Shown here: positions 4,571 through 49,577 of the stretch, piece by piece
Layout of the letters: each line of letters starts with the position of its first letter
Position numbering within the stretch: position 1 is the first letter of the stretch
Virus record (IMG/VR): IMGVR_UViG_3300019755_000001
From: a virus
Lineage: Duplodnaviria; Heunggongvirae; Uroviricota; Caudoviricetes
Reading direction: 5' to 3' (one strand)
Length of the DNA stretch: 64,000 bases
The notes under the pieces: model-generated
What the model was told of the DNA's origin: nothing
Database searches by the model: none
Seen by the model: the letters and a program-made list of their open reading frames with translations, nothing else
Position numbers and translations under genes: made by a program

Positions 4571-5693
4571 TGCCTAGTTCAGCTTCCCATCGTTCGGCTT
4601 TCTCCGTGTCTGTTAATCCGTCTAACCCTAGTATATCTCTAGTAAATAATTCCGTATTTCCTGTGCTCATTACTTTATCCCCCTTGTACTTGTGTCTAGT
4701 GTACTTTTTTAATATGTGTTGCTCCACCTTGTAAGCGGAAGCGCCATTATCGTATTCTGTTGTATAGATTAGTCTTATCTGGTCTCTATCGAACTGAGTC
4801 CTATATCTCTGCTCTATGCTTTGTGAGGTCAGCCCTATTTTGTAGAGGTCTGTTCCTATTACGTTGAAGTAGTAAACCATACACTTTTTATGGATGTCTC
4901 CTTTACCTCCTCCATAGCTTACACAGTGTTTGCAGCCATAGCCACTTAAGTGCCCTGATGCCAGTTGTTCAAAATCTCCGTGTTCAGGGCATGTTATTGT
5001 AATCTTGTCTCTAGCAGCTGTATACGTAGTCTTATCGTAGGTATACTTATCTCCGTGAACTTTCTTTGCTTTCTGGATAAATTCCTCTTGTGAGCACTCT
5101 TTACTCTTGGCACTAGAGACTACCCCACACTTAGGACACCCTGTACCATTTAAGTGGTTTGTAGGGGATTGACTAAATCTACCATGTTCAGGGCATATAA
5201 TCGTCACAGGAGTAGTTGATAACGTATACTCGACTTCAGCGTAGTCGAACTTGTTTGCGTGTAGTATGTTTGCAGACTCTATGAAACTTACAGTAGTATG
5301 TGTATTATTGCCGCACTTTGTACAACCTTTACCAGCTAGGTGTTGGTCGCAGCGTTGCTCAAACTCTCCATGTACGGAACAGATAATTTTTACTTTATTC
5401 CTAGAGGTCGCATTAATTACTTTGCTGTAATCATATACGTCTCTATGTACTTTACGGGCCCGCTCTATGAAATTCTCGTCAGTCATTTTAATTCTGACTC
5501 CGGCACACACAGGACACCCTTGTCCTCTGCCATAGTGCTTCGAGGGAGACTGCCAGAAGCCTCCGTGCTCAGGACACACTATTTCAATCTTTGTTTTTGC
5601 GTCTATGTATTTCACCTTACTATAATCATACTTATAATTATGCTTATTGTTAGCTCTTTGGATAACTTCTTCAACTGTTAGTGACTTCGCCAT
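4542..5693 (-). CDS. homing-endonuclease-like protein: four N-terminal Cys/His repeats plus a C-terminal T5orf172/GIY-YIG-like domain
   Basis: 383 aa. Four ~48-aa repeats of the form (V/K)H.DxYDYSKV...I.CP.HG.F.Q.P..HL.G.GCP.C. The C-terminus (VYYFN...YKIGLTSQSIEQRY...STGNTELF) matches the T5orf172-type GIY-YIG-like fold. Confidence 0.6.
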   Translation of the reverse strand: MAKSLTVEEVIQRANNKHNYKYDYSKVKYIDAKTKIEIVCPEHGGFWQSPSKHYGRGQGCPVCAGVRIKMTDENFIERARKVHRDVYDYSKVINATSRNKVKIICSVHGEFEQRCDQHLAGKGCTKCGNNTHTTVSFIESANILHANKFDYAEVEYTLSTTPVTIICPEHGRFSQSPTNHLNGTGCPKCGVVSSAKSKECSQEEFIQKAKKVHGDKYTYDKTTYTAARDKITITCPEHGDFEQLASGHLSGYGCKHCVSYGGGKGDIHKKCMVYYFNVIGTDLYKIGLTSQSIEQRYRTQFDRDQIRLIYTTEYDNGASAYKVEQHILKKYTRHKYKGDKVMSTGNTELFTRDILGLDGLTDTEKAERWEAELGNENKKKAGK

Positions 5694-5718: not shown

Positions 5719-6318
5719 TTAATTATATCCTTTTCCGTCTGTATTATAACTTAATTTACGTTTCCTTTTCCATCTGTCTAGTACCTCATCCTTATCTAGC
5801 CACAGATCTTTACCCTCAAGTACTCTATTAATTTCCTTATTACTCAGAAATCCTTTGTATAAGTCATTGAATACACCGGCTAGCAGTTTATCACTAAACT
5901 CCATGTATGCTTTAGTTTCGTGGTGCTTGCCTTGTGTACCTCCAGATGAGCTGTGTATCATAAAACTTGTCCAGTCCCCTATTTCTATCTCATCACAACA
6001 CATCGTAATCATAGTTGCTGCACTAGCTACTGTACCGTCTAGTACTGCTATTACTTTTGCGTTGGATTTCTGTATTGCCGAACGTATACTCAGCATACTA
6101 TCCATATAGCCGCCACCGTTATTCATTATTAATTTTACTGTTTTTGCTTTTGTGTGTTCTAATGTGTGTATTAGTTCGCAGTAATTACCAACTGAGTATA
6201 CCTCTTCTGGTAGGTACGCATATACTGTATCTTTATCCGCTATTATCGGTACTGCTTTTTCCCATTCGCTAGTTGCTCCTGGTGCTTTATCTTCGTTGAA
6301 TGTTAGTTCTAATTCCAT
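5719..6318 (-). CDS. ClpP-like serine peptidase (S14 family)
   Basis: 199 aa. IMNNGGGYMDS...GTVASAATMI...MIHSSSGGTQG aligns with the ClpP core (NSPGG...GQAASMG...MIHQPLGG), including the catalytic Ser and His context. Confidence 0.7.
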   Translation of the reverse strand: MELELTFNEDKAPGATSEWEKAVPIIADKDTVYAYLPEEVYSVGNYCELIHTLEHTKAKTVKLIMNNGGGYMDSMLSIRSAIQKSNAKVIAVLDGTVASAATMITMCCDEIEIGDWTSFMIHSSSGGTQGKHHETKAYMEFSDKLLAGVFNDLYKGFLSNKEINRVLEGKDLWLDKDEVLDRWKRKRKLSYNTDGKGYN

Positions 6319-9292: not shown

Positions 9293-9445
9293 TATTATGT
9301 TTCTTTCGCCATAGGTTAATTTTTAAGTTTGATAGTGTTCAGAAGAGTTGGCGGACTTCTTATCAAGTACTTACTAAAGAGGTGAGTCCGCCAAGATTGA
9401 CCTCTTTATTAAAAACTTTGTACCTTAATTATACAAAGTATTGGC

Positions 9446-25762: not shown

Positions 25763-25872
25763 GCAGTATTAGCTCAGTTGGTAGAGCACTTTCCAAGTAA
25801 TTGTCTGGAGAACACCCTCTAATTAAGAGGTGCAAGAGAGTTAGGTCCCTGGTTCGAGCCCAGGATACTGCA
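25763..25872 (+). tRNA. tRNA-like gene, 110 nt, with a ~35-42 nt insertion in the anticodon region
   Basis: Perfect 7-bp acceptor (GCAGTAT/ATACTGC). Canonical D-arm (TAGCTCAGTTGGTAGAGC), variable loop AGGTC and T-arm (CCTGG-TTCGAGC-CCAGG), discriminator A. Between the 6-bp helix ACTTTC/GAGAGT sits 42 nt that contains its own hairpin (CACCCTC-TAATTAA-GAGGTG). No canonical 7-nt loop with U33 could be derived. Confidence 0.45.
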
Positions 25873-26056
25873 CAACCTGGTCAGTATTATCGGTACAGGT
25901 GTGAATGTACCAACTTTATTTATGCTGTGGAAGTGGGTAACAATACAGGATCGAGGCCTGTGCCCAGCACCACTCAGTCTTGGAAGCAAGTCTGTTTAAC
26001 TAGCCGTATATAGATAAGTCTGCAGGGTGTAGCTCTGGGGGTAACAGCCCGGGTCG

Positions 26057-26180: not shown

Positions 26181-26300
26181 GAAAGAGTGACAGAGTAGGG
26201 AGTAGTTAGCAAGCTATTCTGCAATGTGTGAGTGTATATGTAACATCACTCGACGGTTCTTTACACAACCACGTAGGTTGAAATCCTACCTCTTTCACCA
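26181..26300 (+). tRNA. tRNA-like gene, 117 nt plus encoded CCA, with a ~40 nt insertion
   Basis: Perfect 7-bp acceptor (GAAAGAG/CTCTTTC). T-arm GTAGG-TTGAAAT-CCTAC, discriminator A, then CCA. The central region is expanded. It contains GGTT-CTTTACAC-AACC with an 8-nt loop bearing TTA. Confidence 0.4.
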
Positions 26301-26309
26301 ATTTTATAC

Positions 26310-26380
26310 GGACGTTTACCCAATCTGGTCTGAATGTGGCAGGTCGCTCCTGTAGGTCGGTTCAATTCCGACAACGTCCA
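26310..26380 (+). tRNA. tRNA-like gene, 71 nt, non-canonical D/anticodon region
   Basis: Perfect 7-bp acceptor (GGACGTT/AACGTCC). T-arm GTCGG-TTCAATT-CCGAC, discriminator A. The D and anticodon arms could not be folded into the canonical form by eye. Confidence 0.4.
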
Positions 26381-26721: not shown

Positions 26722-26733
26722 CAAAGGACTAAC

Positions 26734-27180
26734 ATGAAACAACTACTACTTTTACTACTAGCTATTAATCTATACGCACTTGACTTCGACTCAATCGTAA
26801 CAGAGGTCAAACAACACGAAGGTTTTAGACACAAACCTTACGTAGACGGCAATCATTACTCAGTTGGGTACGGTACCAACCTATCGTACATCACAAAGGC
26901 CGAAGCTCATTTGCTACTAGTTCATCGTTTATCGATGCGCCAAGCACAGTTACAACAACACGAGTGGTACAATAAACTTAACCCAACTCGTCAATATGTA
27001 CTTTTATCAATGGCTTACCAACTTGGCTATACTGGACTTATGCAGTTCAAACACACAATTTGGCGTATCAAACAAGGATATTATAGAGCAGCAGGCAATT
27101 CTATGCAGGATAGCCTTTGGTTCAAACAATCTGGTAATCGCTCAAGAGAACTAGTGAAACTAATGAAGAAAGGGTATTAA
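26734..27180 (+). CDS. endolysin: GH24 (T4-type) lysozyme with N-terminal signal/SAR segment
   Basis: 148 aa. The N-terminal MKQLLLLLLAINLYALDF is hydrophobic. EGFRHKPYVDGNHYSVGYGTNL matches the lysozyme active-site region (T4 E: [21 protein letters not shown]). Confidence 0.75.
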   Translation: MKQLLLLLLAINLYALDFDSIVTEVKQHEGFRHKPYVDGNHYSVGYGTNLSYITKAEAHLLLVHRLSMRQAQLQQHEWYNKLNPTRQYVLLSMAYQLGYTGLMQFKHTIWRIKQGYYRAAGNSMQDSLWFKQSGNRSRELVKLMKKGY

Positions 27181-31648: not shown

Positions 31649-31682
31649 ACTCAGCACCTTCGGGTGTTGTACTGAGTTTATT
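31649..31682 (+). terminator. rho-independent terminator-like hairpin
   Basis: ACTCAGCACC-ttcg-GGTG(ttgta)CTGAGT followed by TTTATT, directly after the operon's last stop codon. Confidence 0.55.
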
Positions 31683-31696
31683 ACAAAGGACATAAC

Positions 31697-31882
31697 ATGA
31701 AGATAATCGACGGAACAAACGAACAAATCAAGTCACCAAACACAATCAGCGTTGACGTACACATCGAACCTGGTGAGTATGTGAACATAGTACTACCATC
31801 TGGTAGGATTCTTACTGTTGATTACAGGGACGCAACTCTATGGGACGTTGACGAATCACTAATCAACTCATTGGAATTATAA
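31697..31882 (+). CDS. hypothetical protein
   Basis: 61 aa; AAAGGA RBS. Confidence 0.4.
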   Translation: MKIIDGTNEQIKSPNTISVDVHIEPGEYVNIVLPSGRILTVDYRDATLWDVDESLINSLEL

Positions 31883-37562: not shown

Positions 37563-39377
37563 ATGCAAGAACGGCCTTACCAAACCCAATATGTTGATGG
37601 TATTCAACTTAACCAATCCAACCTGATGATCTCAACCATGCGTTCAGGCAAATCCTATATTTTGGAGCGAATTATTGAGCGTTACTTCACTGGTAAACGT
37701 GTATTAATTCTAGTGGGGATGCGCAATATAGTGCTCCAGTTAGCGGACTACTTCGACGACCATACGTTTATTCTAACCGGTAAACACCACGACGATAACA
37801 AACATATTCAACTTGCGACATTTCAAACCTTTCAGAGAAGGTCAATAGATCTGTCTAGCTACGATTTAGTTGCTATTGACGAAGCACATATGCGGTACGA
37901 CACCAAGTTAGTGAAGGAAATTCGCAGCTTATCTTGTACTCGATTGTTTATGACTGGTACACCACTCAAGCCTAATGGCCGGTTCTTAGATGATTCGATC
38001 GACAACATACTGGAATTCACTAGCATGAAGCAGATGCTATCTGACGGTTATCTTGCACCAACTCGGTTCATCTCTCGGTACAATCTACTGGCAGACGAAT
38101 CATCTATTGGTGTACGGAATGGTGAGTACATCGACACGGACATTGAACGTGTTCTGGACAAGTCTGCTGTTGTTGACCAATTGGTAGCTGATGCGAACCA
38201 ACTCAACTGGGCTACTGAGCACAAGTGTATTCTGTACGTTAACTCAATCCACACAGCGATGAAGGTGTTTGATGCATTCGCAGATCCAGCCAATGTACGT
38301 GTTATTCACTCCAAGCTGAGCAAGTCTCAATTGGAAGTTGTCACGAACTGGTACGAGGACTGTACTAATGGTATTATCATCAATGTTCGTATGCTTACGA
38401 TTGGGTATGATTCACCGACTACTGATACTATATTGTACCTCACACCAACTCGTGTGACTTCGCTGTTCTTGCAATCTGTCTGGCGTGCATCTACGCTCAA
38501 CGGCAACAAACAAGCAACTGTTTACGATTACTCTGGTACTTTATCTCGTATTAACCCATTCTTCAACGATTGGCGTAAGGAAAAGCCAACCTGTCGTGAA
38601 CAGTGTGCGAAGCTGAAGAATCCTATGGAGAGGTTCTTTTGTGAAGCATCTTGTGTATCTGAACCGCCTATGTCGACTTGTGATGGTCAACTACCATACT
38701 CACTAATCGACAACCCATATGTTAGCAACTTCACCATCAGCTCGGGCGAACCTTGTGGAGAAACTGTGCCGGTTTTCAACATGTCTTTCAAGTCAACCGA
38801 GCCGAGTGTTGGTGTTTTACGTAAGTGGTCCAAGTGTAAGTGTGGTTGTGTATCGTATTACGACGTAGCAACTCTCACCGAACCATCGCAGATGATTACT
38901 ATGTACCAAGACGAAGTGCCGAGCAATTGTGTTACTATCTTGTACTCCCAAGAGCACGGTAAAGCACTAGCAATCCTCGACGATCTTAACAAGCCGACTT
39001 ACTCGTTCAAGATGTTCACCAACTCAACTGAGCTGTACGAGCACTGTCTCAAATACTTTAACGACCAGCCGTTTACTATTTTGTCTAACGCCAAGTCTAA
39101 GTTACCGAACGTTGTTGTTGATACTGAACTGAACTACGCTCTACCCCTAGTTAATTGGGAGTCTGAGTCGAACACAGGACTGATCAAGAAGCTAATCCGG
39201 TCGAAGTTGGAGCACATTTGTGAGCATTTTTCAATCCGTAAGGGCTATGCGTATTACCAGATGAAGAACATCACGAGCCAGAACGCTAAACAAATTATGA
39301 ACACACTGAACTCAAGTGACTTATCACGAGCCGCTTTAATCAAGTGTTTCAAAAAAATTGAACCAAAGGACAATTAA
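37563..39377 (+). CDS. SF2 DEAH-box DNA helicase with C-terminal Cys-rich region
   Basis: 604 aa. Motif I ISTMRSGKSYI, motif II LVAIDEAHM, motif III MTGTP. Cys cluster CREQCAKL...CEASC. Confidence 0.7.
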   Translation: MQERPYQTQYVDGIQLNQSNLMISTMRSGKSYILERIIERYFTGKRVLILVGMRNIVLQLADYFDDHTFILTGKHHDDNKHIQLATFQTFQRRSIDLSSYDLVAIDEAHMRYDTKLVKEIRSLSCTRLFMTGTPLKPNGRFLDDSIDNILEFTSMKQMLSDGYLAPTRFISRYNLLADESSIGVRNGEYIDTDIERVLDKSAVVDQLVADANQLNWATEHKCILYVNSIHTAMKVFDAFADPANVRVIHSKLSKSQLEVVTNWYEDCTNGIIINVRMLTIGYDSPTTDTILYLTPTRVTSLFLQSVWRASTLNGNKQATVYDYSGTLSRINPFFNDWRKEKPTCREQCAKLKNPMERFFCEASCVSEPPMSTCDGQLPYSLIDNPYVSNFTISSGEPCGETVPVFNMSFKSTEPSVGVLRKWSKCKCGCVSYYDVATLTEPSQMITMYQDEVPSNCVTILYSQEHGKALAILDDLNKPTYSFKMFTNSTELYEHCLKYFNDQPFTILSNAKSKLPNVVVDTELNYALPLVNWESESNTGLIKKLIRSKLEHICEHFSIRKGYAYYQMKNITSQNAKQIMNTLNSSDLSRAALIKCFKKIEPKDN

Positions 39378-40405
39378 TGACAAAAAAATCAATATCAAGA
39401 AACCTGACAACAAAAACTAACGAATGGTTAAACTCAATTACTGACACAGAATTACGTAATGATCTTAAATCAAATATAATTGTAACTGGAGGAGCTATAG
39501 CTTCAATGTTCTTAAATGAACAAGTTAATGATTATGATATTTATATATCAAATAAACAAGTTCTTATTCGTTTAGCTAACTATTATTGTGAGCAGTTTAA
39601 CAAATCGCAGCCAAGTAATAGCACACCGGCTTGGGTACTGGATGGGGAGGATATCGCCGCATGGAAATCAGGGGATAAATGTATTAGTTCATTTGCTCAT
39701 GGTTATGACCCAGTTCAGTATGAGCCTGCTATGGAGTGGAATGCTGAGGAAGGTAGGCATTTGTCTTATGGGCCTAGTGGTATGTTACTTAATACAGCAC
39801 CAGACCAAGTTAAGATAATTATAAACTCTGATGGTATTGCAGAAGATAACACAGCTGATGAAGTGGATTATGACGTTGAAGAATATGTTGAAAGAACTCA
39901 AAGCAATAACGAACAACCAAAAAACAAATACAGACCTATATTTATTAGTGCAAATGCAATTACATTATCGGATAAGATTCAGATAGTTGTTCGTTTTTAT
40001 GGAGACCCGGAAGAAATCCACTCTAACTATGATTTTGTACACTGTACAGGTTACTGGCATTCGACTAATAAAAAAGTAGTTGCTGATGCTGAAGTGCTTG
40101 AAGCACTAATGAACAAAGTACTAGTATATAGAGGCAGCAAGTATCCAATAGCAAGTATGATCCGTACAAGAAAGTTCATTAAACGAGGGTATCATATCAA
40201 CGCAGGCCAATATTTGAAAATGGCTATGCAAATTAACAAGCTTGACCTTAACAATATTTATGTGCTTGAGGATCAATTAACTGGGGTAGACTCTATTTAC
40301 TTCATGCAGTTTATTAGACAAGTTAGAAAGCAAATAGAATCTGGGAAATCAATTGATTTAACCGGAGACTACGTAACTACTGTTATTGACAGAATATTCA
40401 ATTAA
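39377..40405 (+). CDS. hypothetical protein
   Basis: 342 aa. Confidence 0.5.
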   Translation: MTKKSISRNLTTKTNEWLNSITDTELRNDLKSNIIVTGGAIASMFLNEQVNDYDIYISNKQVLIRLANYYCEQFNKSQPSNSTPAWVLDGEDIAAWKSGDKCISSFAHGYDPVQYEPAMEWNAEEGRHLSYGPSGMLLNTAPDQVKIIINSDGIAEDNTADEVDYDVEEYVERTQSNNEQPKNKYRPIFISANAITLSDKIQIVVRFYGDPEEIHSNYDFVHCTGYWHSTNKKVVADAEVLEALMNKVLVYRGSKYPIASMIRTRKFIKRGYHINAGQYLKMAMQINKLDLNNIYVLEDQLTGVDSIYFMQFIRQVRKQIESGKSIDLTGDYVTTVIDRIFN

Positions 40406-41783: not shown

Positions 41784-42371
41784 ATGCGAAAATCAACTGT
41801 GGCCAAATACATTAACGAATTTACTAACTGGGTCAACGAGCAACCAGTTTTAATGGGCTACCCAACCTCTATGTCTGATAGGACACTTACTTGGAAATCC
41901 GTTACTTCCCATACTGATTGGGAAGCGTTTGATACTATTTACGTATTGGATGATGAATATTCCACTTTCAGAAAAGCCTTGGCTGAAGGGAAACAATTGC
42001 AGTTTTACGATAAGTGGAAGTGGGACACAGAGATTTGGGATGACTTGAATTATACCAATCCTTCCTTTGCTTTTAGTCCTGATTTGCAATACCGTATCAA
42101 GACAGAACACCAAACTTTTACAGTTGGTACTTGGGTTCGTCATCCTGATGACTATGTATTTCAGTGCAAAGACGACACATGTCCTTATGGTCCTGATTAC
42201 GAACTTTGGGAACCCCAACCTGGGGAATGGTGTTGGTTTTGGAATACTGGTTCAACGACTGCAGTCATTGGACAACTCAAGTCTACTTGCGGTCAATATA
42301 TAACTAAAGGACCGACAAGATGGGATTACTGTCAGCCTTTCATCGGTGAACTACCAGTTCATCTTCAATAA
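41784..42371 (+). CDS. hypothetical Trp-rich protein
   Basis: 195 aa. Confidence 0.45.
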   Translation: MRKSTVAKYINEFTNWVNEQPVLMGYPTSMSDRTLTWKSVTSHTDWEAFDTIYVLDDEYSTFRKALAEGKQLQFYDKWKWDTEIWDDLNYTNPSFAFSPDLQYRIKTEHQTFTVGTWVRHPDDYVFQCKDDTCPYGPDYELWEPQPGEWCWFWNTGSTTAVIGQLKSTCGQYITKGPTRWDYCQPFIGELPVHLQ

Positions 42372-42916
42372 TTTAGTGGTGCCTAGGTTAAATGATCACA
42401 GCCACAAACAACTTTAAGGAGTCTTTGATGAATTTCAGAGGAAGCAAAATCGGATGCGGAGTAATCTGCGGCGTGGTTTCAGGAATGGAATCGTGAAAGG
42501 GGTAGGTGGAATGGGCGGAAGTCCTATGACTGGTGCCGAATGTCGTTGGGAGAACAATGACTCTCCTATCACTGACGGTGGAGACATCTAACTAACTTGA
42601 CAAGTGGTGGAATAAACGAGTTAGAGTCTCGTACTGTCCTTAACTGGGCAGTGTGAATGGTTCACAAAGACACATACCAAGCCGAAGCAATCTTTACGGC
42701 TGTAACTACAGGGAGTCGGTTCAATTCCGATGACACACATTAGGGGTTGTGGAGGGGTTCAAGGCCCTAAACTGTAGTGTCTCAAGGTGTAAGTCCTTGA
42801 GCTTGTCAACAAGGCAGACGTGCCGAGCTTCAGTTTAGTGGTTAATAGCCGATACTTTACTGATTAAACAACAAGCCTCTACCACATTGCACTATGTTTT
42901 GTGGATACGCTTTTAT

Positions 42917-42987
42917 GAAGCATTCGTCTAGTGGTAGGACCACAACATTAAAATCAGTGTACCCAGGTTCGATTCCTGGATGCTTCA
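42917..42987 (+). tRNA. tRNA-like gene, 71 nt, with an enlarged anticodon loop
   Basis: Perfect acceptor GAAGCAT/ATGCTTC. D-arm GTC-TAGTGGTAG-GAC. T-arm CCAGG-TTCGATT-CCTGG, discriminator A. The anticodon region CACAACATTAAAATCAGTG only forms a 3-4 bp stem with a ~9-13 nt loop. Confidence 0.4.
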
Positions 42988-43043
42988 CTTAACCCTTTCC
43001 AAGCTAGGTAAACAGACTAATGCAATTTAGTCGGAGGGTTTAT

Positions 43044-43122
43044 GGACATTTAGCTCAGTGGTAGAGCGCCTGCACTAGCATGAAATAACAGGAGGCCACA
43101 AGTTCAACTCTTGGAATGTCCA
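43044..43122 (+). tRNA. tRNA-like gene, 79 nt, with a ~15-nt anticodon loop
   Basis: Acceptor GGACATT/AATGTCC. Canonical D-arm TAGCTCAGTGGTAGAGCG. The 5' anticodon stem CCTGC is followed by ACTAGCATGAAATAA and then (A)CAGG. T-arm CAAG-TTCAACT-CTTG. 3' end A-CC. Confidence 0.4.
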
Positions 43123-43295
43123 CCTTACACCGCAACATGCTCATGAAAGAGGCGGTATATAAATAGACAAGTGAAGAGCAGGAATGGGGAATTGATAGAA
43201 TCATCCGCAGCCTTAAAGAGCAAGGGAACTATCACGAACAAGTAGGGTCTTATCCAATTGGATTTGTACTTCTACGCAAACAGTAAATTTACGCA

Positions 43296-43361
43296 ACAAC
43301 CAACTAGCCTACAGGTGTAGGATTGCAGCCCTCTGGCTCGAAACCAGTACGTTGGTTGTTG
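43296..43361 (+). ncRNA. mini tRNA-like element: 11-bp terminal helix enclosing two hairpins, one of them T-arm-like
   Basis: CAACAACCAAC...GTTGGTTGTTG forms a perfect 11-bp closing helix. Inside are CCTACA-GG-TGTAGG and CTGG-CTCGAAA-CCAG. Confidence 0.3.
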
Positions 43362-43676
43362 TAGTAAGTTTATATGACCTGAGACGGCCGAGCTTATCAC
43401 TTTCGATATACAGTACTGATGGAATTCAACATCAACTACTGGACGTGCCTTAAACCGTTGATCTGCAGAATCACTGAGTGGCGGCGCACAATGCTCGGTA
43501 AGGTACTAGAGCTATACAAGAGAGTACCTATGGCTACCTCGAAAAGAGTGAAATAATTTACTAGTTTACAGTCATATAAAACTAGTGCAAACAATCAGCT
43601 GATGAAGCACACACCACACCAGGCAAATTGTCGAGGAAGTTATGTGCTTTAGTGAGTTGATAATAAAGGAGTAATT

Positions 43677-44546
43677 ATGAGATTAGTAGACAAAATATTG
43701 AATTATATGACAGGCAGAGAAAGTACAAGTCTTTCAGAGCTGTATAGAACTTTCAGTGAAACAGCAGAAACAACAATCAGAGGAAGAGTAAACGAAGCCA
43801 CTAAATCCAGACAACTTATTAGAATTGCTAGAGGGAAGTACATATTAGCAGGAGACGATATTGATGCGGTTATCATAGAAGGAAATGCTCTTAGTATAGT
43901 TCCACAAATATGCAACACAAACATAAAGTATGACTTGATTTTTTTGGACATTCCTTATAATTTAGGAGGACAAAAAGGGGGCAACAGAAATCTTGCTAAC
44001 TATAATCTTATTGAGCCTGAGACATTTAAAGAGTTTCTGCATTACGCTACTAAGCTATTACGGAACGAGGACTCTTTAGTTTACATGATGATTGCCGGAG
44101 GAAAGTCATCAATCAAAAAAGCAATGAAGTATTTAGAAGCGTTTGATAGTACTGAACTTAAATGTGTAGCAGAAGGCTCTTATACAAAGCTAACAAAAGC
44201 AGGAAAAGTATGTAACATGGGAAAATATAAAATGCCACCAGAGTTAATAAAAGCATATAATAAAAAAGGTATTTCTAGCATATCTCAAGAGAATCTGGAT
44301 TTTAGAATACAAAGACCTCCATTACCTGTTTCAGGAGGATACCCTACACAAAAGCCAAGAGAATTACTTGACAATATAATAGAAAAATCAACAAAGCTTA
44401 AGGACCTTGTACTAGACCCTTTTGGAGGTTCAGGAGAAATGTTATCTGCTGTCTTAAACGCAGGTAGAAGAATACACACTTTTGACATATCTCCTAAAAG
44501 TATAGAAGAGTTTATTTTACCAAAGGCAAGACAGTATGGAATTTGA
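43677..44546 (+). CDS. DNA methyltransferase, beta-class N6-adenine/N4-cytosine, with N-terminal HTH
   Basis: 289 aa. Motif IV DLIFLDIPYN precedes the TQKP motif (GYPTQKPRELL) and motif I VLDPFGGSGEM. This order is typical of the N6_N4_Mtase family. Confidence 0.75.
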   Translation: MRLVDKILNYMTGRESTSLSELYRTFSETAETTIRGRVNEATKSRQLIRIARGKYILAGDDIDAVIIEGNALSIVPQICNTNIKYDLIFLDIPYNLGGQKGGNRNLANYNLIEPETFKEFLHYATKLLRNEDSLVYMMIAGGKSSIKKAMKYLEAFDSTELKCVAEGSYTKLTKAGKVCNMGKYKMPPELIKAYNKKGISSISQENLDFRIQRPPLPVSGGYPTQKPRELLDNIIEKSTKLKDLVLDPFGGSGEMLSAVLNAGRRIHTFDISPKSIEEFILPKARQYGI

Positions 44547-45123
44547 AGGATTAACCGTAGACAGCAAGTTTTTGTGTGTCGCGCCAAATGACTATGCGGT
44601 AGTAGCGAAGTTTTCAGTTATTGTTAATGGTCATTCATTCGAGTACTCACAAAGTCCTCACTGGCTTGCACAACACTACAAGAAACTGAAGGGCAAAGTG
44701 TTTTACTCATCTAATGACCACAACTGGATATTGAACGACATTATCAAGGACAAGGCATGTATTCTAAAGGACAGGGATGAGGATAAGTTCTCACTCAAGT
44801 TAGCTAATGGCAGAGGTTATTATATTGATGTTACGGAGCCACGATTTACAACTTTCTTTAGCGGTCTCAGCAAACTCAGGTTAACCATGACTGATGAGGA
44901 GAACCTATTCGCACTTCGTTGTGTGTTACAGGACGCTCTAATACCCCTGGAGTTTAACGAAGAGGAGTTCATCGAGTGTATGGGCTACGAGGGGAATTAC
45001 CAATCTGTCATGAATGGTGTTCGTGTGTACAATCAGTGCAAGGACAATTTCTTCAAGTTGGCTCTTGGTGATTCACAAATCCGCACACTCTTGGACAAAC
45101 TGTCTGAACAAGGAATTGAGTAA
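44536..45123 (+). CDS. hypothetical protein
   Basis: 195 aa, coupled to the MTase gene. Confidence 0.45.
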   Translation: MEFEGLTVDSKFLCVAPNDYAVVAKFSVIVNGHSFEYSQSPHWLAQHYKKLKGKVFYSSNDHNWILNDIIKDKACILKDRDEDKFSLKLANGRGYYIDVTEPRFTTFFSGLSKLRLTMTDEENLFALRCVLQDALIPLEFNEEEFIECMGYEGNYQSVMNGVRVYNQCKDNFFKLALGDSQIRTLLDKLSEQGIE

Positions 45124-46406: not shown

Positions 46407-46556
46407 ATGGACAGTATACACGACCCACTAACTCAAGCAATCATTTACAGGGCGGAGATCTTGGAACGTCTGGAGTTAACAATACACCAATCTGAGCGTG
46501 ATAATTTAGTCAGTGTATTAACTAAACTAGATACATACATATTGGAGCAATCATGA
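46407..46556 (+). CDS. hypothetical small protein (49 aa)
   Basis: Not in the ORF track. AAAGGAG RBS; ATGA overlap with the polymerase gene. Confidence 0.35.
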   Translation: MDSIHDPLTQAIIYRAEILERLELTIHQSERDNLVSVLTKLDTYILEQS

Positions 46557-49210
46557 TTAATTTACTGCTCACTGAATTTATTCCAGGATACACCCAATCA
46601 ATTAACCAGTACATCAAGTCGGAGTTTGATCTTGAACCAACTGACTTGAACATCATCATGGTCGGCTCGTTACCACGTGATGACGGCAAGTACTTGATTG
46701 ACCATTTAGTCGGTACGGTTGTTACGGATTACTGGCAATTCAAATCAACTGACAACGTTCGACGAATTGACGACATGGCAACTGTATCTGATGTTGGTGA
46801 TATTGTAGCATCTCATTTCATCACACCAAAAGTTTGGTACACTGATGAAGTAGAAGTAGCCCAACGCTGGCTGGCTAAGTTACCAAGCACTTTTGCTTAC
46901 GATACAGAAACTCGTGGTCTAGCAATCAAGGACATTGGTGACATTACTATGCACTCATTTAGTATCCCCAAAGGGAACTCTATTGTGCTTATTGACTCTC
47001 CAGTTATTCGTGCGCTAATCTTTGATTTTCTTATAACTACTGAGCAATCTGTGGTTTGCCATAATCTTGCTTTCGATATGAGACCAATTTATCGAGCTAC
47101 TAGTAAGTTCATCAAGAACTACGAGGATACTCAACTAATTGCTCAAGCATATATGAACAACGCCAAGCAGCCTTTATTTAGCTTGAAAGCTTTAGCTGGC
47201 GGATTATTAGGTGATTGGGCTTCAGCAAAAACCTCTTTTGAACTTTATGAAGACTCTACTGACTATGACAATCCCAACCTAGTATATGTCGGCTCTAATC
47301 CTGATGTAACGAAGTACAACTTACCTCTTATTTACTACGCAGGGGTAGATACAACCGCTACAATCCATTTGTGGAACAAGTTTTCACGAATCGATCCTGA
47401 GTTTGAATCAGTGGATATTGGGGACTTATTACCAATTCCTGAACCAAGGTACCATGAGGAATCCCCACGTTTCTTCTATGAGAACGTACTGAAGCCTCTT
47501 ATCCGTACAAATATTGAACTATTGGAAACACCAATGCCTATTGATATGGGTATTGTTGAGGAGATTAAGCAGGAGGCATTGGATCAGAAGGAGCCCGCAT
47601 TTGATAAGCTGCAGAATTTCCCAGCTGTTATGGAGTATATGGCAACAGTCAAAGCACAACTAATTACCAAGTTAACTGAACCTTTACTGGAGCAGAAGCG
47701 TAACTGGCCTGTTCGTGTATATAAACACACACCAGCTGATCGTACGTTTGTGATGAACAAACTAACTGGCGAATCTCGTGATTCCTGGAAGATTGTTGAT
47801 ATTAAGCAGTACTTGAAGGAGGAAGAAGCACCTGACCCACTAGTTCAAGCAATTCTTGATAAGTCGGATAGCTTGCCTACTAACTCACGTATGCAAATTC
47901 TCATGAAGAGTCATCGTACCCTGAACCAAACCAAGTTGCAACATAAGCTTGATAATCCTGAGCAGTATCTTGACCCTAAGCAAACTGTAATTAATCCAAA
48001 TGCGTCACAGCAAATGCGTGGATTATGGAAGTCTTTGGGCCTTGAGTCTGATGTACTTACTCCGAAGAAGGAGGAATCTTTCAGTAAGGAAGTACTTGAG
48101 TCCATTGTGAAAACAACGTCTAACCAAACCGCGAAAGAGGTGATTCAGCAAGTCTTGGAAATTGCAGCTACTAAGAATTTACTTTCACAGTACATCCCTG
48201 CCTACGAACATAGCAGCAAAGATGGTTTTTGTTATCAATCAATGAAGTGTCCTGGTACCAAATCTTACCGTATTTCTGGAGCTGTTGGGAAGGTTGATAA
48301 ATCTGTTATTTCAGATGAACCTCTGTCTGGTTTTGGTGCGTCAATGGTAACACAACCAGGAATCACCAAGCGAGCAGTTGTTGCTCCTGACGGATTTATT
48401 ATTGCTACGTCGGATTATGCAGGTCTTGAGGGAGTAATTGGGGCGTGTATTACACATGACCCAAACAAAGTGGCTATCTTTAACGATGGTTTGGATCTTC
48501 ACTGTCTTAACGCAGCTTCTTTCTTCCAACCGGAAGTAGAGGAGTTACTTGGTCGTCCTGTGGAACAAACTCTGGAGTTCAACAAGTTCTTCAATGCGTT
48601 CAGGAAGGAACACAAGTCTGCCGACAAACTACGTTCAGCTGCTAAGTCTCCCAATTACCTTCTTGAGTATGGTGGGTATCCTCCCAAACTCTCGAAAGAT
48701 TTGGGTTGTAGTCTAGCTGTTGCACAGAGTATCTTTGATAAGTTCCATTATGAGACGTTTTTAGGTACTACCAATTACCGTGAGGATTATGTGTTACCTA
48801 CTGTTGTAAAACAAGGGTACTTACATCTTGGTCTGGGTGCGCGAATTTACTCTAGCAATCCCCAGAAGGATATACGTACTGTTACGAATGCAGGATATCA
48901 ATTCTGGTCTATATTAACTCTCATTGGACTGTACCTTATCAAGGAACGAATTAAGTCGGCTGGGTATGAGCATGATATTTTTATCTACTCAACTATACAC
49001 GATTCTATTACAGCATATGTACGACAGGACCCAGCTATTATTAAGTGGTATAATGACAACCTTATTGAGTGTATGGTACCGGATTTTCTTATTGACCAGG
49101 AAGTAACTCTTGAGTCTAATGTGGATATTGGCCCATCGTATGATAAATGTGTGGAACTACCAAACGAATGTTCTATTGAACATATTAATCAAGTCTTAGC
49201 TACTTTTTAG
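46553..49210 (+). CDS. DNA polymerase I family (family A) with 3'-5' exonuclease domain
   Basis: 885 aa. Exo I motif FAYDTETRGL. Pol motif B RSAAKSPNYLLEYGG (R..AK..N....YG). Motif C region YSTIHDSI. Confidence 0.85.
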   Translation: MINLLLTEFIPGYTQSINQYIKSEFDLEPTDLNIIMVGSLPRDDGKYLIDHLVGTVVTDYWQFKSTDNVRRIDDMATVSDVGDIVASHFITPKVWYTDEVEVAQRWLAKLPSTFAYDTETRGLAIKDIGDITMHSFSIPKGNSIVLIDSPVIRALIFDFLITTEQSVVCHNLAFDMRPIYRATSKFIKNYEDTQLIAQAYMNNAKQPLFSLKALAGGLLGDWASAKTSFELYEDSTDYDNPNLVYVGSNPDVTKYNLPLIYYAGVDTTATIHLWNKFSRIDPEFESVDIGDLLPIPEPRYHEESPRFFYENVLKPLIRTNIELLETPMPIDMGIVEEIKQEALDQKEPAFDKLQNFPAVMEYMATVKAQLITKLTEPLLEQKRNWPVRVYKHTPADRTFVMNKLTGESRDSWKIVDIKQYLKEEEAPDPLVQAILDKSDSLPTNSRMQILMKSHRTLNQTKLQHKLDNPEQYLDPKQTVINPNASQQMRGLWKSLGLESDVLTPKKEESFSKEVLESIVKTTSNQTAKEVIQQVLEIAATKNLLSQYIPAYEHSSKDGFCYQSMKCPGTKSYRISGAVGKVDKSVISDEPLSGFGASMVTQPGITKRAVVAPDGFIIATSDYAGLEGVIGACITHDPNKVAIFNDGLDLHCLNAASFFQPEVEELLGRPVEQTLEFNKFFNAFRKEHKSADKLRSAAKSPNYLLEYGGYPPKLSKDLGCSLAVAQSIFDKFHYETFLGTTNYREDYVLPTVVKQGYLHLGLGARIYSSNPQKDIRTVTNAGYQFWSILTLIGLYLIKERIKSAGYEHDIFIYSTIHDSITAYVRQDPAIIKWYNDNLIECMVPDFLIDQEVTLESNVDIGPSYDKCVELPNECSIEHINQVLATF

Positions 49211-49319
49211 CTGAGCAACAACGCCTCGATTGAGGCAATTACCAGCACAAACTAGCTGAACTTAGATAGACACAGCCATTTTCGGATGGTTGCAGTGTAT
49301 TTATTACAAAGGATAACAC

Positions 49320-49577
49320 ATGCACGTTAACGATATTACGCCCTCACTAGGCAGAGTTTATTGCGACTTTAATTTACCAATTACAGGTACTGGAATGTTT
49401 CGTACTCTTGATGGAGAAATAGTTAAACTGTCAACTTCTGTCACATGGTACGCATTTTGTCCTACTTATCATCTGGATTATAACGAACATACGATTTCAG
49501 TCACAAACAAAGATAGCATACCAGAAGCAGAGTTAGCTTTGTGTATGTTAATTAACCAATCAAAGGATAACAAATGA
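49320..49577 (+). CDS. hypothetical protein
   Basis: 85 aa; AAAGGA RBS. Confidence 0.4.
   Translation: MHVNDITPSLGRVYCDFNLPITGTGMFRTLDGEIVKLSTSVTWYAFCPTYHLDYNEHTISVTNKDSIPEAELALCMLINQSKDNK

Follow-up and report, generated by a model that had tools for sequence, protein, structure and literature searches.

tRNA-like genes with aberrant anticodon arms in a hypervariable spacer of a tailed phage

A non-coding spacer of ~1.3 kb (positions 42372-43676) in the DNA of a tailed phage carries two genes, here called B and C, in which a canonical tRNA body is joined to an anticodon arm so wrecked or oversized that, as far as one can judge from sequence, their products almost certainly cannot decode. 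The window analyzed is a stretch of 64,000 nucleotides (Caudoviricetes; IMG/VR record IMGVR_UViG_3300019755_000001). Our best reading, to which we give a probability of about 0.4 as a whole, is that ordinary phage tRNA genes, of Glu-type and Ala-type, gave rise to B, C and a degenerate copy at 42651-42739, that the spacer forms an island of small RNAs within a hypervariable accessory spot of a phage of roughly 100 kb, and that B and C would yield non-decoding tRNA-like RNAs, processed like tRNAs and possibly serving as decoys. That these genes are tRNA pseudogenes in decay is nearly as likely.

Structure of the tRNA-like genes

The spacer follows a 195-aa ORF ending at 42371 and is succeeded directly by a DNA methyltransferase gene (Pfam N6_N4_Mtase) starting at 43677; the flanking genes all lie on the plus strand, as do the tRNA-like modules. 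The first-pass annotation had described an ORF-free 1.3 kb between replication genes and this methyltransferase, and nothing longer than 49 aa is indeed found there. When the spacer is reread with TGA, TAG or TAA as sense, no long ORF appears (the longest open frame has 146 codons), which rules out a protein gene hidden under a reassigned stop codon. Its features, some of them shared with two mosaic relatives, L014 and L018, are the following:

42373..42410, plus strand: conserved leader just 3' of the upstream gene, UUAGUGGUGCCUAGGUUAAAUGAUCACAGCCACAA
42428-42496 and 42511-42591, plus strand: two tiny ORFs in different frames, halves of one small Gly-rich ORF
42651..42739, plus strand: degenerate tRNA-like candidate with T arm GUCGG-UUCAAUU-CCGAU and 5/7 acceptor pairs
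42812..42895, plus strand: block X, a conserved non-coding block with 90% identity to L018:9057-9140
42917..42987, plus strand: tRNA-like B, a tRNA-Glu-type body matching Rfam RF00005
43044..43122, plus strand: tRNA-like C, a tRNA-Ala-type body (GAGCGCCUGC...CAGGAGG) matching Rfam RF00005
43244..43279, plus strand: small hairpin holding a palindrome at 43252-43263, then UUGUACUUCUACGCAA
43294..43361, plus strand: "mini" element, an 11-bp closing helix around two hairpins (a three-way junction)
43374..43435, plus strand: element Y, motif GACCUGAGACGGCCGAGCUUAUCACU..UCGAUAUACA and then a hairpin with loop GAAUUCAA
43560..43586, plus strand: hairpin ACUAGUUU...AAACUAGU, fold z-score -2.5
43587..43676, plus strand: conserved 5' leader with stem AAGCACA...UGUGCUU and the ribosome-binding site of the next gene

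Against the Rfam tRNA model RF00005, B scores 41.9 bits (E 1.7e-5 for the 64-kb window) and C 50.7 bits (E 6.4e-8), both above the gathering score of 29 bits. Each has the canonical body (7-bp acceptor, D arm with G18G19, T arm with a UUCRA loop), and neither has the canonical anticodon arm (5-bp stem, 7-nt loop, U33, purine 37). For B, the perfect acceptor, D and T arms reported in the first pass are all there, with 7/7, 4/4 (one G-U) and 5/5 pairs and canonical D and T loops; the gene has a 4-nt variable loop, A73, a U at -1, no encoded CCA and a 3' trailer CUU. The Rfam alignment keeps two of five anticodon-stem pairs in register and flags the other three as non-standard, while the minimum-energy fold (z-score -3.8 vs shuffles) forms an out-of-register 5-bp stem with a 6-nt loop. 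ARAGORN misses B by default and reports it only with introns allowed or the threshold lowered.

The same claim of perfect arms was made for C and stands for its acceptor (7/7) and D-stem (4/4); the T-stem pairs at 4/5, with an A49.G65 mismatch. The Ala-like backbone and oversized anticodon loop are as described, the arm being CCUG-CACUAGCAUGAAAUAA-CAGG, that is, a 4-bp stem and a 16-nt loop, with 16 nt in the Rfam alignment where 9 are expected. C has A73, no encoded CCA, a 3' trailer CCU and A:U at position 3:70, so that the alanine identity pair G3:U70 is missing. It is the only element reported by ARAGORN at default settings, as "tRNA-???" with no assignable anticodon, and the phage genes nearest to it are tRNA-Ala (74% identity). 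Aligned with the true tRNA-Glu of a distant relative, L015, B departs chiefly at positions 26-38, and what sets B and C apart from true tRNA-Glu and tRNA-Ala lies within about positions 26-39. Covariance models pick up a copy only if its acceptor, D and T arms are intact, so that this apparent confinement of damage to the anticodon arm is in part an effect of ascertainment. The idea of tRNA-derived genes with anticodon-arm defects that elude standard tools is upheld by Rfam matches to which ARAGORN assigns no anticodon; descent from tRNA-Glu and tRNA-Ala by alignment, aberrant anticodon arms and lack of CCA are also what one finds in a tRNA pseudogene.

The loop of C contains UAG, UGA and UAA and resembles a phage translation-start region (ACUAGCAUGAAA). 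As an antisense sequence it finds no target: its sole near match, at 26727-26743, is of the same sense and not significant, and an 8-mer complement at 43582-43589 is within chance. A comparison of the enlarged loops of this and a second non-coding cluster in the window (cluster 1) for shared motifs had been proposed; nothing convincing is seen by eye.

One could suppose that these are true tRNAs, decoding-competent after a processing step such as removal of a mini-insert, or by unconventional decoding. For the cluster-1 element 25763-25873, ARAGORN with introns does yield a tRNA-Cys(GCA), whose CUGCAAG loop is clean once 37 nt are removed; the L018 orthologue of C receives a tRNA-Leu(CAG) call with the threshold at its default, and L018 encodes an RNA ligase nearby. 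For C itself, however, every combination of loop prefix and suffix leaves C, A or G at position 33 upon enumeration, and one contiguous deletion never yields a 7-nt loop with U33 and purine 37; B requires a 2-nt "intron" and still retains two mismatched stem pairs. The group I core (RF00028) has no match in the window, nor in the spacer at E<=10, and the inserts here are of 0-9 nt. No RNA ligase, Pnkp or RtcB domain was found among the 67 window ORFs scanned, CCA and the alanine identity pair are missing, and we know of no splicing system for short tRNA inserts in bacteria. We consider functional decoding highly improbable.

The tRNA-like domains of tmRNA and of the bacterial and phage Y RNA (YrlA) share with B and C a tRNA top half without an anticodon arm, and the tmRNA domain is Ala-type, like C; B and C differ in having their 5' and 3' ends in the normal tRNA position, and C in lacking G3:U70. 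A tmRNA is rejected on the ARAGORN tmRNA search, on the absence of an Rfam tmRNA match and on the A:U at 3:70 of C. YrlA likewise has no Rfam match in the window or spacer, and no Ro60 (TROVE) domain is present among the best 25 of the 29 families matched by the scanned ORFs (for Ro60 in phages, see PMC12135203).

Retention of C and degenerate copies in the window

Orthologues of C were located in both mosaic relatives:

L014:5704-5783: C orthologue
L018:9184-9254: C orthologue

Both keep the acceptor stem, D arm and T arm, and the anticodon arm of the L018 copy is completely different. They stand as islands in spacer that does not otherwise align, the similarity breaking off within a few bases of either gene end. 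C has been retained as a discrete module in three mosaic lineages. One acceptor pair has changed in a compensatory manner (G2-C71 to U2-A71), and T-stem positions 49 and 50 vary with pairing retained. Over the three copies, which are all that are available, two changes break a pair, one gives G-U and one pair is compensatory; of the four acceptor substitutions, two are pair-breaking. The window and L014 share an identical run of 33 nt, which falls short of significance (p about 0.08); L014 is a close relative on that side, its neighbouring protein being 93% identical.

That C has outlasted several recombination events with tight module borders and one compensatory pair speaks against decay of a former working tRNA array, of the kind seen in distant relatives, in which selection was relaxed and the genes eroded in a spacer alongside other dead sequence. 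In favor of decay, on the other hand, each C orthologue has a further defect, the L014 copy having a non-canonical T loop (UACGAAU) and falling below Rfam detection at E<=1. True tRNAs of the distant relatives L015 and L017 score 51-76 bits vs 41.9-50.7 for B and C, and CCA is encoded in 0/6 tRNA-like copies (five of the six begin with C at position 74) as opposed to 5/5 true tRNAs of L015. The 5' leaders of the tRNA-like genes (..UAU then G) match those of true tRNAs in both distant relatives. In a variant of the decay reading, the localized lesions could have been left behind when insertions in the anticodon loop were imprecisely lost, for instance group I introns, which do circulate in this phage group.

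The distribution among relatives is sporadic, a further point for decay. B was sought in L014 and L018 and is absent, being found in this phage only; neither the degenerate candidate nor the mini element has a counterpart elsewhere, and five relatives (L007, L025, L027, L028 and L030) have no tRNA-like gene at this locus. None of 50,697 phage records matches the spacer or its 14-kb neighbourhood at the DNA level. When C was sought by exact and gapped DNA patterns, nothing was found in viral contigs or GTDB genomes, and in metagenome contigs only L023, a twin of L018, and one chance match, L024. Searches guided by neighbouring proteins (the methyltransferase, a 395-aa protein next to cluster 1, the downstream 195-aa family and PolA) yielded nothing in viral or genome contigs, and a covariance model built on C recovers, apart from true tRNAs, no members but element A and B. 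Further assemblies of this phage show 100% identity over 3.7-21 kb, and hence provide no population variation to use.

The degenerate candidate at 42651-42739, put forward in the first pass as a weaker case, is indeed weak. It has no Rfam match at E<=10 and a fold z-score of -0.66, with a 5-bp hairpin around a 12-nt loop (AGCCG...CGGCU); its T arm, on the other hand, contains an exact 16-mer in common with a cluster-1 element (26356-26371). The two non-coding clusters hold four modules that combine a perfect acceptor stem with a perfect T arm, all four on the coding strand, where 0.08 would be expected (Poisson p about 1.5e-6). This enrichment rests on the zero-mismatch scan only, since a scan allowing one acceptor mismatch gives 28 modules where shuffles give about 40, and so no excess.

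Every tRNA-like gene found in the 64-kb window is of this aberrant kind. One can arrange them in a gradient of degeneracy, from A, B and C through the element at 26310 to that at 42651, as decay would have it; against it, the interiors of A, B and 26310 are ruined while their 7-bp acceptor stems are Watson-Crick throughout and their T arms perfect, and about 2.6 kb of useless DNA in two clusters would be unusual for a phage genome. The original suggestion, that two clusters make a systematic feature more likely than random decay, divides in two: the excess of modules and the keeping of C in three lineages favor something systematic, while the extra defects of the orthologues, the missing CCA, a broken small ORF and the absence of the cluster from many relatives count against dismissing decay.

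The surrounding spacer

The broken ORF lies near the 5' end. The two tiny ORFs, listed in the first pass with good ribosome-binding sites, are no genes of their own: they are halves of a single small ORF, which L014 has intact (5592-5678, MTGYGNQFTGMESKEGGDAAPINGFGGI); they end in ...SGMES and ...DSPITDGGDI, are collinear with the L014 ORF and are broken by TGA and TAG. The coordinates first given hold for 42428-42496, and the second ORF runs from 42511 to 42591, not 42515-42595. With an adjacent ORF in this state, the spacer evidently tolerates dead sequence, which is again in keeping with decay.

The mini element does possess the 11-bp helix claimed for it, as an inverted repeat (I7) of 100% complementarity between 43294-43304 and 43351-43361, and it folds 3.3 standard deviations better than shuffles (z-score -3.27). 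Its proposed tRNA-like character fares less well, there being no Rfam family at E<=10 and no homologue in any relative locus compared. The palindrome ATCCAATTGGAT is present, at 43252-43263 and not 43242-43253; the small hairpin around it is 82% identical to L018:9255-9303, and its stem reads AUCC/GGAU here and AUCU/AGAU there, a single C-G to U-A exchange. Block X, for which Rfam has no match, is in L018 a 71-nt stretch closed by GGUAGA/UCUACC. At the position of the hairpin at 43560..43586, L014 and L018 have a different one, GYACAUG...CAUGYGC, before GCAAAGCAAU.

Both borders of the spacer are conserved. The leader at 42373..42410 is 97% identical to L018:8858-8892 and 90% to L014:5538-5594, and that at 43587..43676 matches L014:6046-6135 at 90% identity, standing there in front of the 195-aa gene and not of the methyltransferase. 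These leaders are compatible with a role of the modules in cis, as RNase P and 3'-end entry sites at which a long plus-strand transcript would be cut between the replication genes and the methyltransferase/polymerase block, the excised RNAs being roleless, much as tRNAs punctuate mitochondrial transcripts. The modules do share the strand of all flanking genes, a promoter and terminator scan of the spacer predicts none, and the parts that remain intact (acceptor and T arm, U-1, G1, A73) are only those that RNase P requires. Relatives with the same flanking genes nevertheless do without any tRNA-like module, and one module would suffice, which leaves several per cluster unexplained; we regard such a role as improbable, if slightly less so than functional decoding.

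Least probable of all is a DNA-level element lying between replication genes, for instance an origin of replication or a hot spot for recombination, with the tRNA-like sequences as incidental passengers. In its favor, the spacer lies between helicase/exonuclease genes and the polymerase in the domain annotation of the window and is extremely mosaic among relatives, and element Y, found also in L018, L025 and L027, is conserved in sequence yet not exceptional in folding energy. The hairpin stems of Y differ by lineage and still pair (UGAUG/CAUCA, GAGG/CCUC, CUUGAG/CUCAAG). Against it, no iterons or tandem repeats were found in the spacer, the GC-skew strand switch falls elsewhere, at about 13-15 kb, and conservation of the cloverleaf goes unexplained.

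Judging by domain content, the variable spot in this phage group carries counter-defence-type cargo: a Gad2-like nucleotidyltransferase and the methyltransferase in the window, the RNA ligase in L018, and the NAD-salvage genes Prs and NAMPT in L025. The downstream 195-aa protein gave an unusable AlphaFold model (pLDDT 46), and a PDB profile search with the neighbouring protein returned no meaningful match.

Decoys or relics

In the best reading, B and C would be transcribed together with the flanking plus-strand genes, cut by RNase P at U-1/G1 and trimmed at the 3' end by the host, and would accumulate as stable L-shaped RNAs unable to decode. Acting in trans, such tRNA mimics may occupy a host factor that recognizes the tRNA body, for example a tRNA-targeting defence nuclease; this is the mode of action we prefer, speculative as it is, and the altered anticodon arm might make the RNAs non-substrates or traps. 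For this reading speak the intact bodies, the localized change, the retention of C, the kept pairing, the enrichment, the leaders, the absence of a protein gene, the cargo and precedent; against it stand the lack of a predicted promoter or terminator, the small number of C copies with their pair-breaking changes, the defective L014 copy, the non-significant 33-nt run, the restriction of B and the mini element to this phage, the sporadic distribution, the ascertainment effect and the broken neighbouring ORF.

A more elaborate scheme, which we consider unlikely, would make of these genes a set of tRNA-scaffold RNAs, whose acceptor, D and T arms confer stability and tRNA-type processing while the anticodon arm is swapped for a custom loop; they would serve as decoys for, or inhibitors of, immune nucleases of the host that target tRNA or mRNA. 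Such RNAs would be the natural counterpart of the engineered "tRNA scaffold".

tRNA-targeting nucleases (PrrC, RloC, PARIS, Septu/PtuAB, retron effectors, Schlafen-like proteins, OLD) are a major theme of phage defence, and to our knowledge the sole RNA counter-measure so far is a working replacement tRNA. Phage tRNAs counter such defences, including by escape from host anticodon nucleases (van den Berg et al., 2023; PMC10264068); the tRNA-Lys of T5 neutralizes PARIS (PMC11464382), and phage tRNA-Tyr acts against retron and Septu effectors (PMC11555353, PMC13096335). B and C resemble these anti-defence tRNAs in being phage-borne, tRNA-derived and altered in the anticodon arm, amid accessory and counter-defence genes. 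The anti-defence tRNAs, however, are functional decoders with normal 7-nt loops and point changes, whereas B and C have an unpaired stem or a 16-nt loop. Lacking a canonical anticodon loop, they are rejected as nuclease-resistant functional anti-defence tRNAs; with such an arm they could not replace a depleted tRNA, and only decoy action would be possible, a proposed role for which there is as yet no established family.

tRNA pseudogenes and "undetermined" tRNAs in phage arrays are flagged by tRNAscan-SE and ARAGORN. B and C share with them sub-par covariance scores, the lack of an anticodon and CCA, and sporadic occurrence; they differ in that all tRNA-like genes in 64 kb are of this kind, with perfect acceptor and T arms, and in the presence of C in three lineages. 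The stable RNAs C and D of T4 (species 1 and 2) are non-decoding RNAs with partly tRNA-like ends, encoded in the tRNA gene cluster and processed with the tRNAs. They are likewise small stable RNAs of a phage tRNA region, but are unrelated in sequence to B and C, longer and not full cloverleaves. The vtRNAs (TMERs) of murid gammaherpesvirus 68 and the MALAT1 mascRNA are tRNA-shaped RNase P/tRNase Z processing modules that are not aminoacylated. Unlike B and C, they are eukaryotic, transcribed by Pol III or Pol II and linked to miRNA hairpins (for TMERs, see bioRxiv 10.1101/2022.05.09.491269). In the literature that we searched, no phage tRNA-like gene with an enlarged anticodon loop is described.

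Should B and C prove to be relics, they would testify that one phage lineage has lost an entire tRNA array and would caution against inferring function from "tRNA-like" matches. If they are functional, non-decoding tRNA bodies would constitute a second, decoy-type strategy of counter-defence, and a class of phage small RNA that standard annotation misses or discards as pseudogenes.

tRNA-derived genes within a non-coding spacer

The spacer at 42372–43676, flanked by a 195-aa ORF on one side and a DNA methyltransferase gene on the other, contains no ORF longer than 49 aa, in line with its initial description as ORF-free, and no long one emerges when any single stop codon is read as sense. The elements of interest, here and in the window's other non-coding cluster (cluster 1), are as follows.

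tRNA-like elements of the two clusters, all on the coding strand
25763–25872: A, cluster-1 tRNA body (Rfam, 44.6 bits) interrupted by 37 nt after position 32, before position 33
26181–26296: possible 116-nt candidate in cluster 1, encoding CCA
26310–26379: 70-nt element in cluster 1, its acceptor stem GGACGUU resembling that of C
42651–42739: degenerate candidate
42917–42987: B, tRNA-like gene
43044–43122: C, tRNA-like gene
43294–43361: "mini" element

The Rfam tRNA model scores B at 41.9 bits and C at 50.7 bits (gathering score, 29 bits), while the rest of the spacer gives no match to any Rfam family at E ≤ 10. ARAGORN at default settings finds C alone, as "tRNA-???" with a 2-base anticodon; if introns are permitted B is reported too, as Phe(AAA) interrupted by a 2-nt intron, two stem pairs still being mismatched. 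The first-pass annotation credited both genes with perfect acceptor, D and T arms, which is correct for B and for the acceptor stem and D arm of C, the T stem of which pairs at only four of five positions. The in-register anticodon stem of B forms 2/5 pairs (in its minimum-energy fold a 6-nt loop is closed by an out-of-register stem), and the anticodon arm of C is CCUG-CACUAGCAUGAAAUAA-CAGG.

C carries a tRNA-Ala signature (GAGCGCCUGC...CAGGAGG), its closest known phage genes are tRNA-Ala (74% identity), and in the related phage locus L014 its orthologue shows the D loop of tRNA-Ala as well (AGCUGGGA). Relative to tRNA-Ala, eight nucleotides (the loop plus G39) have been replaced by 15, and A3:U70 is present instead of the alanine identity pair G3:U70. 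In its D arm and 4-nt variable loop B is of the tRNA-Glu kind; measured against the true tRNA-Glu of a distant relative, L015, change is concentrated at positions 26–38, with 4/5 identity surviving on the 3' side of the anticodon stem. The lesions of both genes are thus local. It is safe to say that B and C are tRNA-derived genes, unable to decode as they stand.

When every single contiguous deletion in C was enumerated, none gave a 7-nt loop with U33, which counts against C being a tRNA with a removable insert. A is read by ARAGORN as Cys(GCA) once its 37-nt insert is removed. That the elements are cryptic true tRNAs is an explanation that trails behind the two weighed below. Read in the same sense, the enlarged loop of C (CACUAGCAUGAAAUAAC, 43073–43089) is similar to GACUAACAUGAAACAAC (26727–26743), where translation of the gene at 26734 starts, a likeness that, at 3 mismatches, is not significant.

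The window was also scanned for T arms of five perfect base pairs and a T-loop-like heptaloop that run directly into a perfect 7-bp acceptor stem. Both strands (128 kb) yielded five matches versus 3.4 in shuffles; four of the five fall on the coding strand of the two non-coding clusters, where 0.08 would be expected (p ~1.5e-6). C, a fifth such element, was missed because of its single T-stem mismatch. The observation is real and beyond chance, and these four modules support the earlier suggestion of a systematic feature. The context ..UAU/G precedes A, B, C and the C orthologues, as it does the true tRNAs of the distant relatives L015 and L017, whereas an encoded CCA occurs in 0/6 tRNA-like copies versus 5/5 true tRNAs in L015.

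Orthologues of C and other conserved pieces

Protein-guided look-ups recovered nine related contexts. An orthologue of C is present in L014, and in L018 and its twin L023; in the window, L014 and L018 alike, C forms an island of ~90% identity within an otherwise unalignable spacer, the similarity setting in at most a few bases from G1 and stopping at A73. The enlarged loop is identical in the window and L014, but the two are closely related on that side (neighbouring protein, 93% identical), and a 33-nt identical run, given 9 differences over 83 columns, is not significant (p ~0.08). The L018 copy retains the 5' half, T arm and acceptor but has an entirely different anticodon arm (GCCACCGUCAGGAGGUUGG), and is called Leu(CAG) by ARAGORN (Rfam, 38.7 bits). 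Comparison of the three copies shows G2-C71 exchanged for U2-A71, and variation at positions 49 and 50 of the T stem that leaves them paired; two other acceptor changes break pairs. In the L014 copy the T loop is non-canonical, and Rfam gives no match at E ≤ 1. No fetched relative has a counterpart of B, the mini element or 42651–42739, and the fetched 12–22 kb of L007, L025, L027, L028 and L030 contain no tRNA or tRNA-like gene; normal tRNAs are present in L015 and L017.

Several lesser features fared less well. The mini element does have an 11-bp helix (43294–43304/43351–43361) around two hairpins, with a fold 3.3 sd better than shuffles; it nevertheless adds little. The candidate at 42651–42739 is indeed as weak as was proposed (no Rfam match; fold z = -0.66), its T arm having an exact 16-mer in common with a cluster-1 element. 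The first-pass annotation misplaced a palindrome, which lies at 43252–43263, and the second of two tiny ORFs, which lies at 42511–42591. These ORFs (42428–42591) are not separate genes, and add little: they are halves of one 28-aa Gly-rich ORF, intact at L014:5592–5678 (MTGYGNQFTGMESKEGGDAAPINGFGGI) and broken in the window by in-frame TGA and TAG codons and a frame change, the first half being Cys/Gly-rich (GCGVICGVVSG).

Other conserved non-coding blocks of the spacer
Leader downstream of the preceding gene: 97% identity with L018
42812–42895: block X, conserved with relatives
Small hairpin: conserved with relatives, with one C-G to U-A exchange
43374–43435 (L018:9533–9602; L025:9732–9800; L027:8323–8390): element Y, conserved non-coding motif
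43587–43676 (L014:6046–6136): 90-nt leader with ribosome-binding site and ATG, conserved with L014

Element Y, which occurs in four lineages and so in more than any other part of the spacer, consists of GACCUGAGACGGCCGAGCUUAUCACU..UCGAUAUACA and then a hairpin with loop GAAUUCAA, the stem of which varies in sequence by lineage with pairing kept; no Rfam family matches it, and it folds with ordinary energy. The 90-nt leader precedes the methyltransferase (43677–44546) in the window and a 195-aa gene in L014. The methyltransferase therefore looks to have been inserted exactly between the conserved leader and the original gene (window 44536–45123).

A structured element common to L014 (~5850–5890) and L018 (~9296–9335) is absent from the window, where the equivalent site is the mini three-way junction. 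An outer stem (AUCCUC/GGGGAU) encloses a hairpin that reads GG(A)CAC...GUGCC in L018 but, by a C-G to G-C exchange, GG(A)CAG...CUGCC in L014. A repeated motif, GTTnnAGTGnnTTnATnAnAAAGGA, stands directly 5' of three start codons (window 31666–31710, 43646–43690 and 49289–49333) and may be a candidate phage promoter or translational operator.

A variable region with counter-defence-type cargo

Neither the spacer nor a 14-kb neighbourhood could be matched at nucleotide level to any of 50,697 phage genomes on deposit. The window, part of an uncultivated phage, carries essentially all its genes from ~13.6 kb onward on the plus strand, including a helicase, a PD-(D/E)XK-type exonuclease, the methyltransferase and a family A polymerase. 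Several public assemblies hold the same phage (100% identical over 3.7–21 kb; longest contigs 99–108 kb). The hypervariable spot of this phage group lies between exonuclease and polymerase. Besides small-RNA modules, its cargo in the window is the methyltransferase together with a Gad2-like nucleotidyltransferase (the latter a precomputed Pfam PF26128 match not reproduced by separate hmmscan), in L018 an RNA ligase, and in L025 Prs and NAMPT; L028 and L030 lack any sizeable non-coding gap at the equivalent site.

Variable region upstream of the spacer
Window 39377–40405; L018:6786–7859; L025:6025–8722; L017:13870–15866: counter-defence-type cargo, differing among relatives

The L017 cargo is NADAR and NAPRTase adjoining tRNA-Asp, and a reverse transcriptase gene (Pfam RVT_1) borders the fetched L018 locus (L018:1–379). 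In the polymerase (window 46553–49210; L018:10579–13263; L014:6723–8624) the N-terminal ~110 residues are almost invariant in the three phages and the remainder 43–46% identical, a sharp mosaic boundary within the gene. Group I introns (Rfam RF00028) occur at L007:3384–3677 and L014:9384–9657 (55.9 and 68.2 bits), the latter adjoining an HNH gene within the split polymerase region; none was found in the window.

Function or decay

Two readings of these elements have almost equal support. One, in our view nearly as likely as the preferred reading below, is that they are tRNA relics in decay. Low scores, the loss of CCA in every copy, the extra defect in each orthologue, the degeneracy gradient across the elements, the broken adjoining ORF and the sporadic distribution all favour it, as does the fact that detection favours intact bodies. 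Cis-acting processing signals and a DNA-level element trail behind.

Literature searches turned up no account of tRNA-like phage genes whose anticodon loops are enlarged. The nearest concept is that of phage tRNAs evading anticodon nucleases (PMC10264068), where the change is by point changes in the anticodon loop, in contrast to the enlarged loop of C. Our preferred reading, to which we give a probability of about 0.4, is that the elements specify non-decoding tRNA-like RNAs that would be excised like tRNAs and may act as mimics or decoys. Perfect acceptor and T arms beside ruined interiors, the keeping of C as a tight module through recombination, one compensatory acceptor pair, and the common coding-strand orientation with a tRNA-type 5' context support a function, as does the setting in an accessory, counter-defence region.
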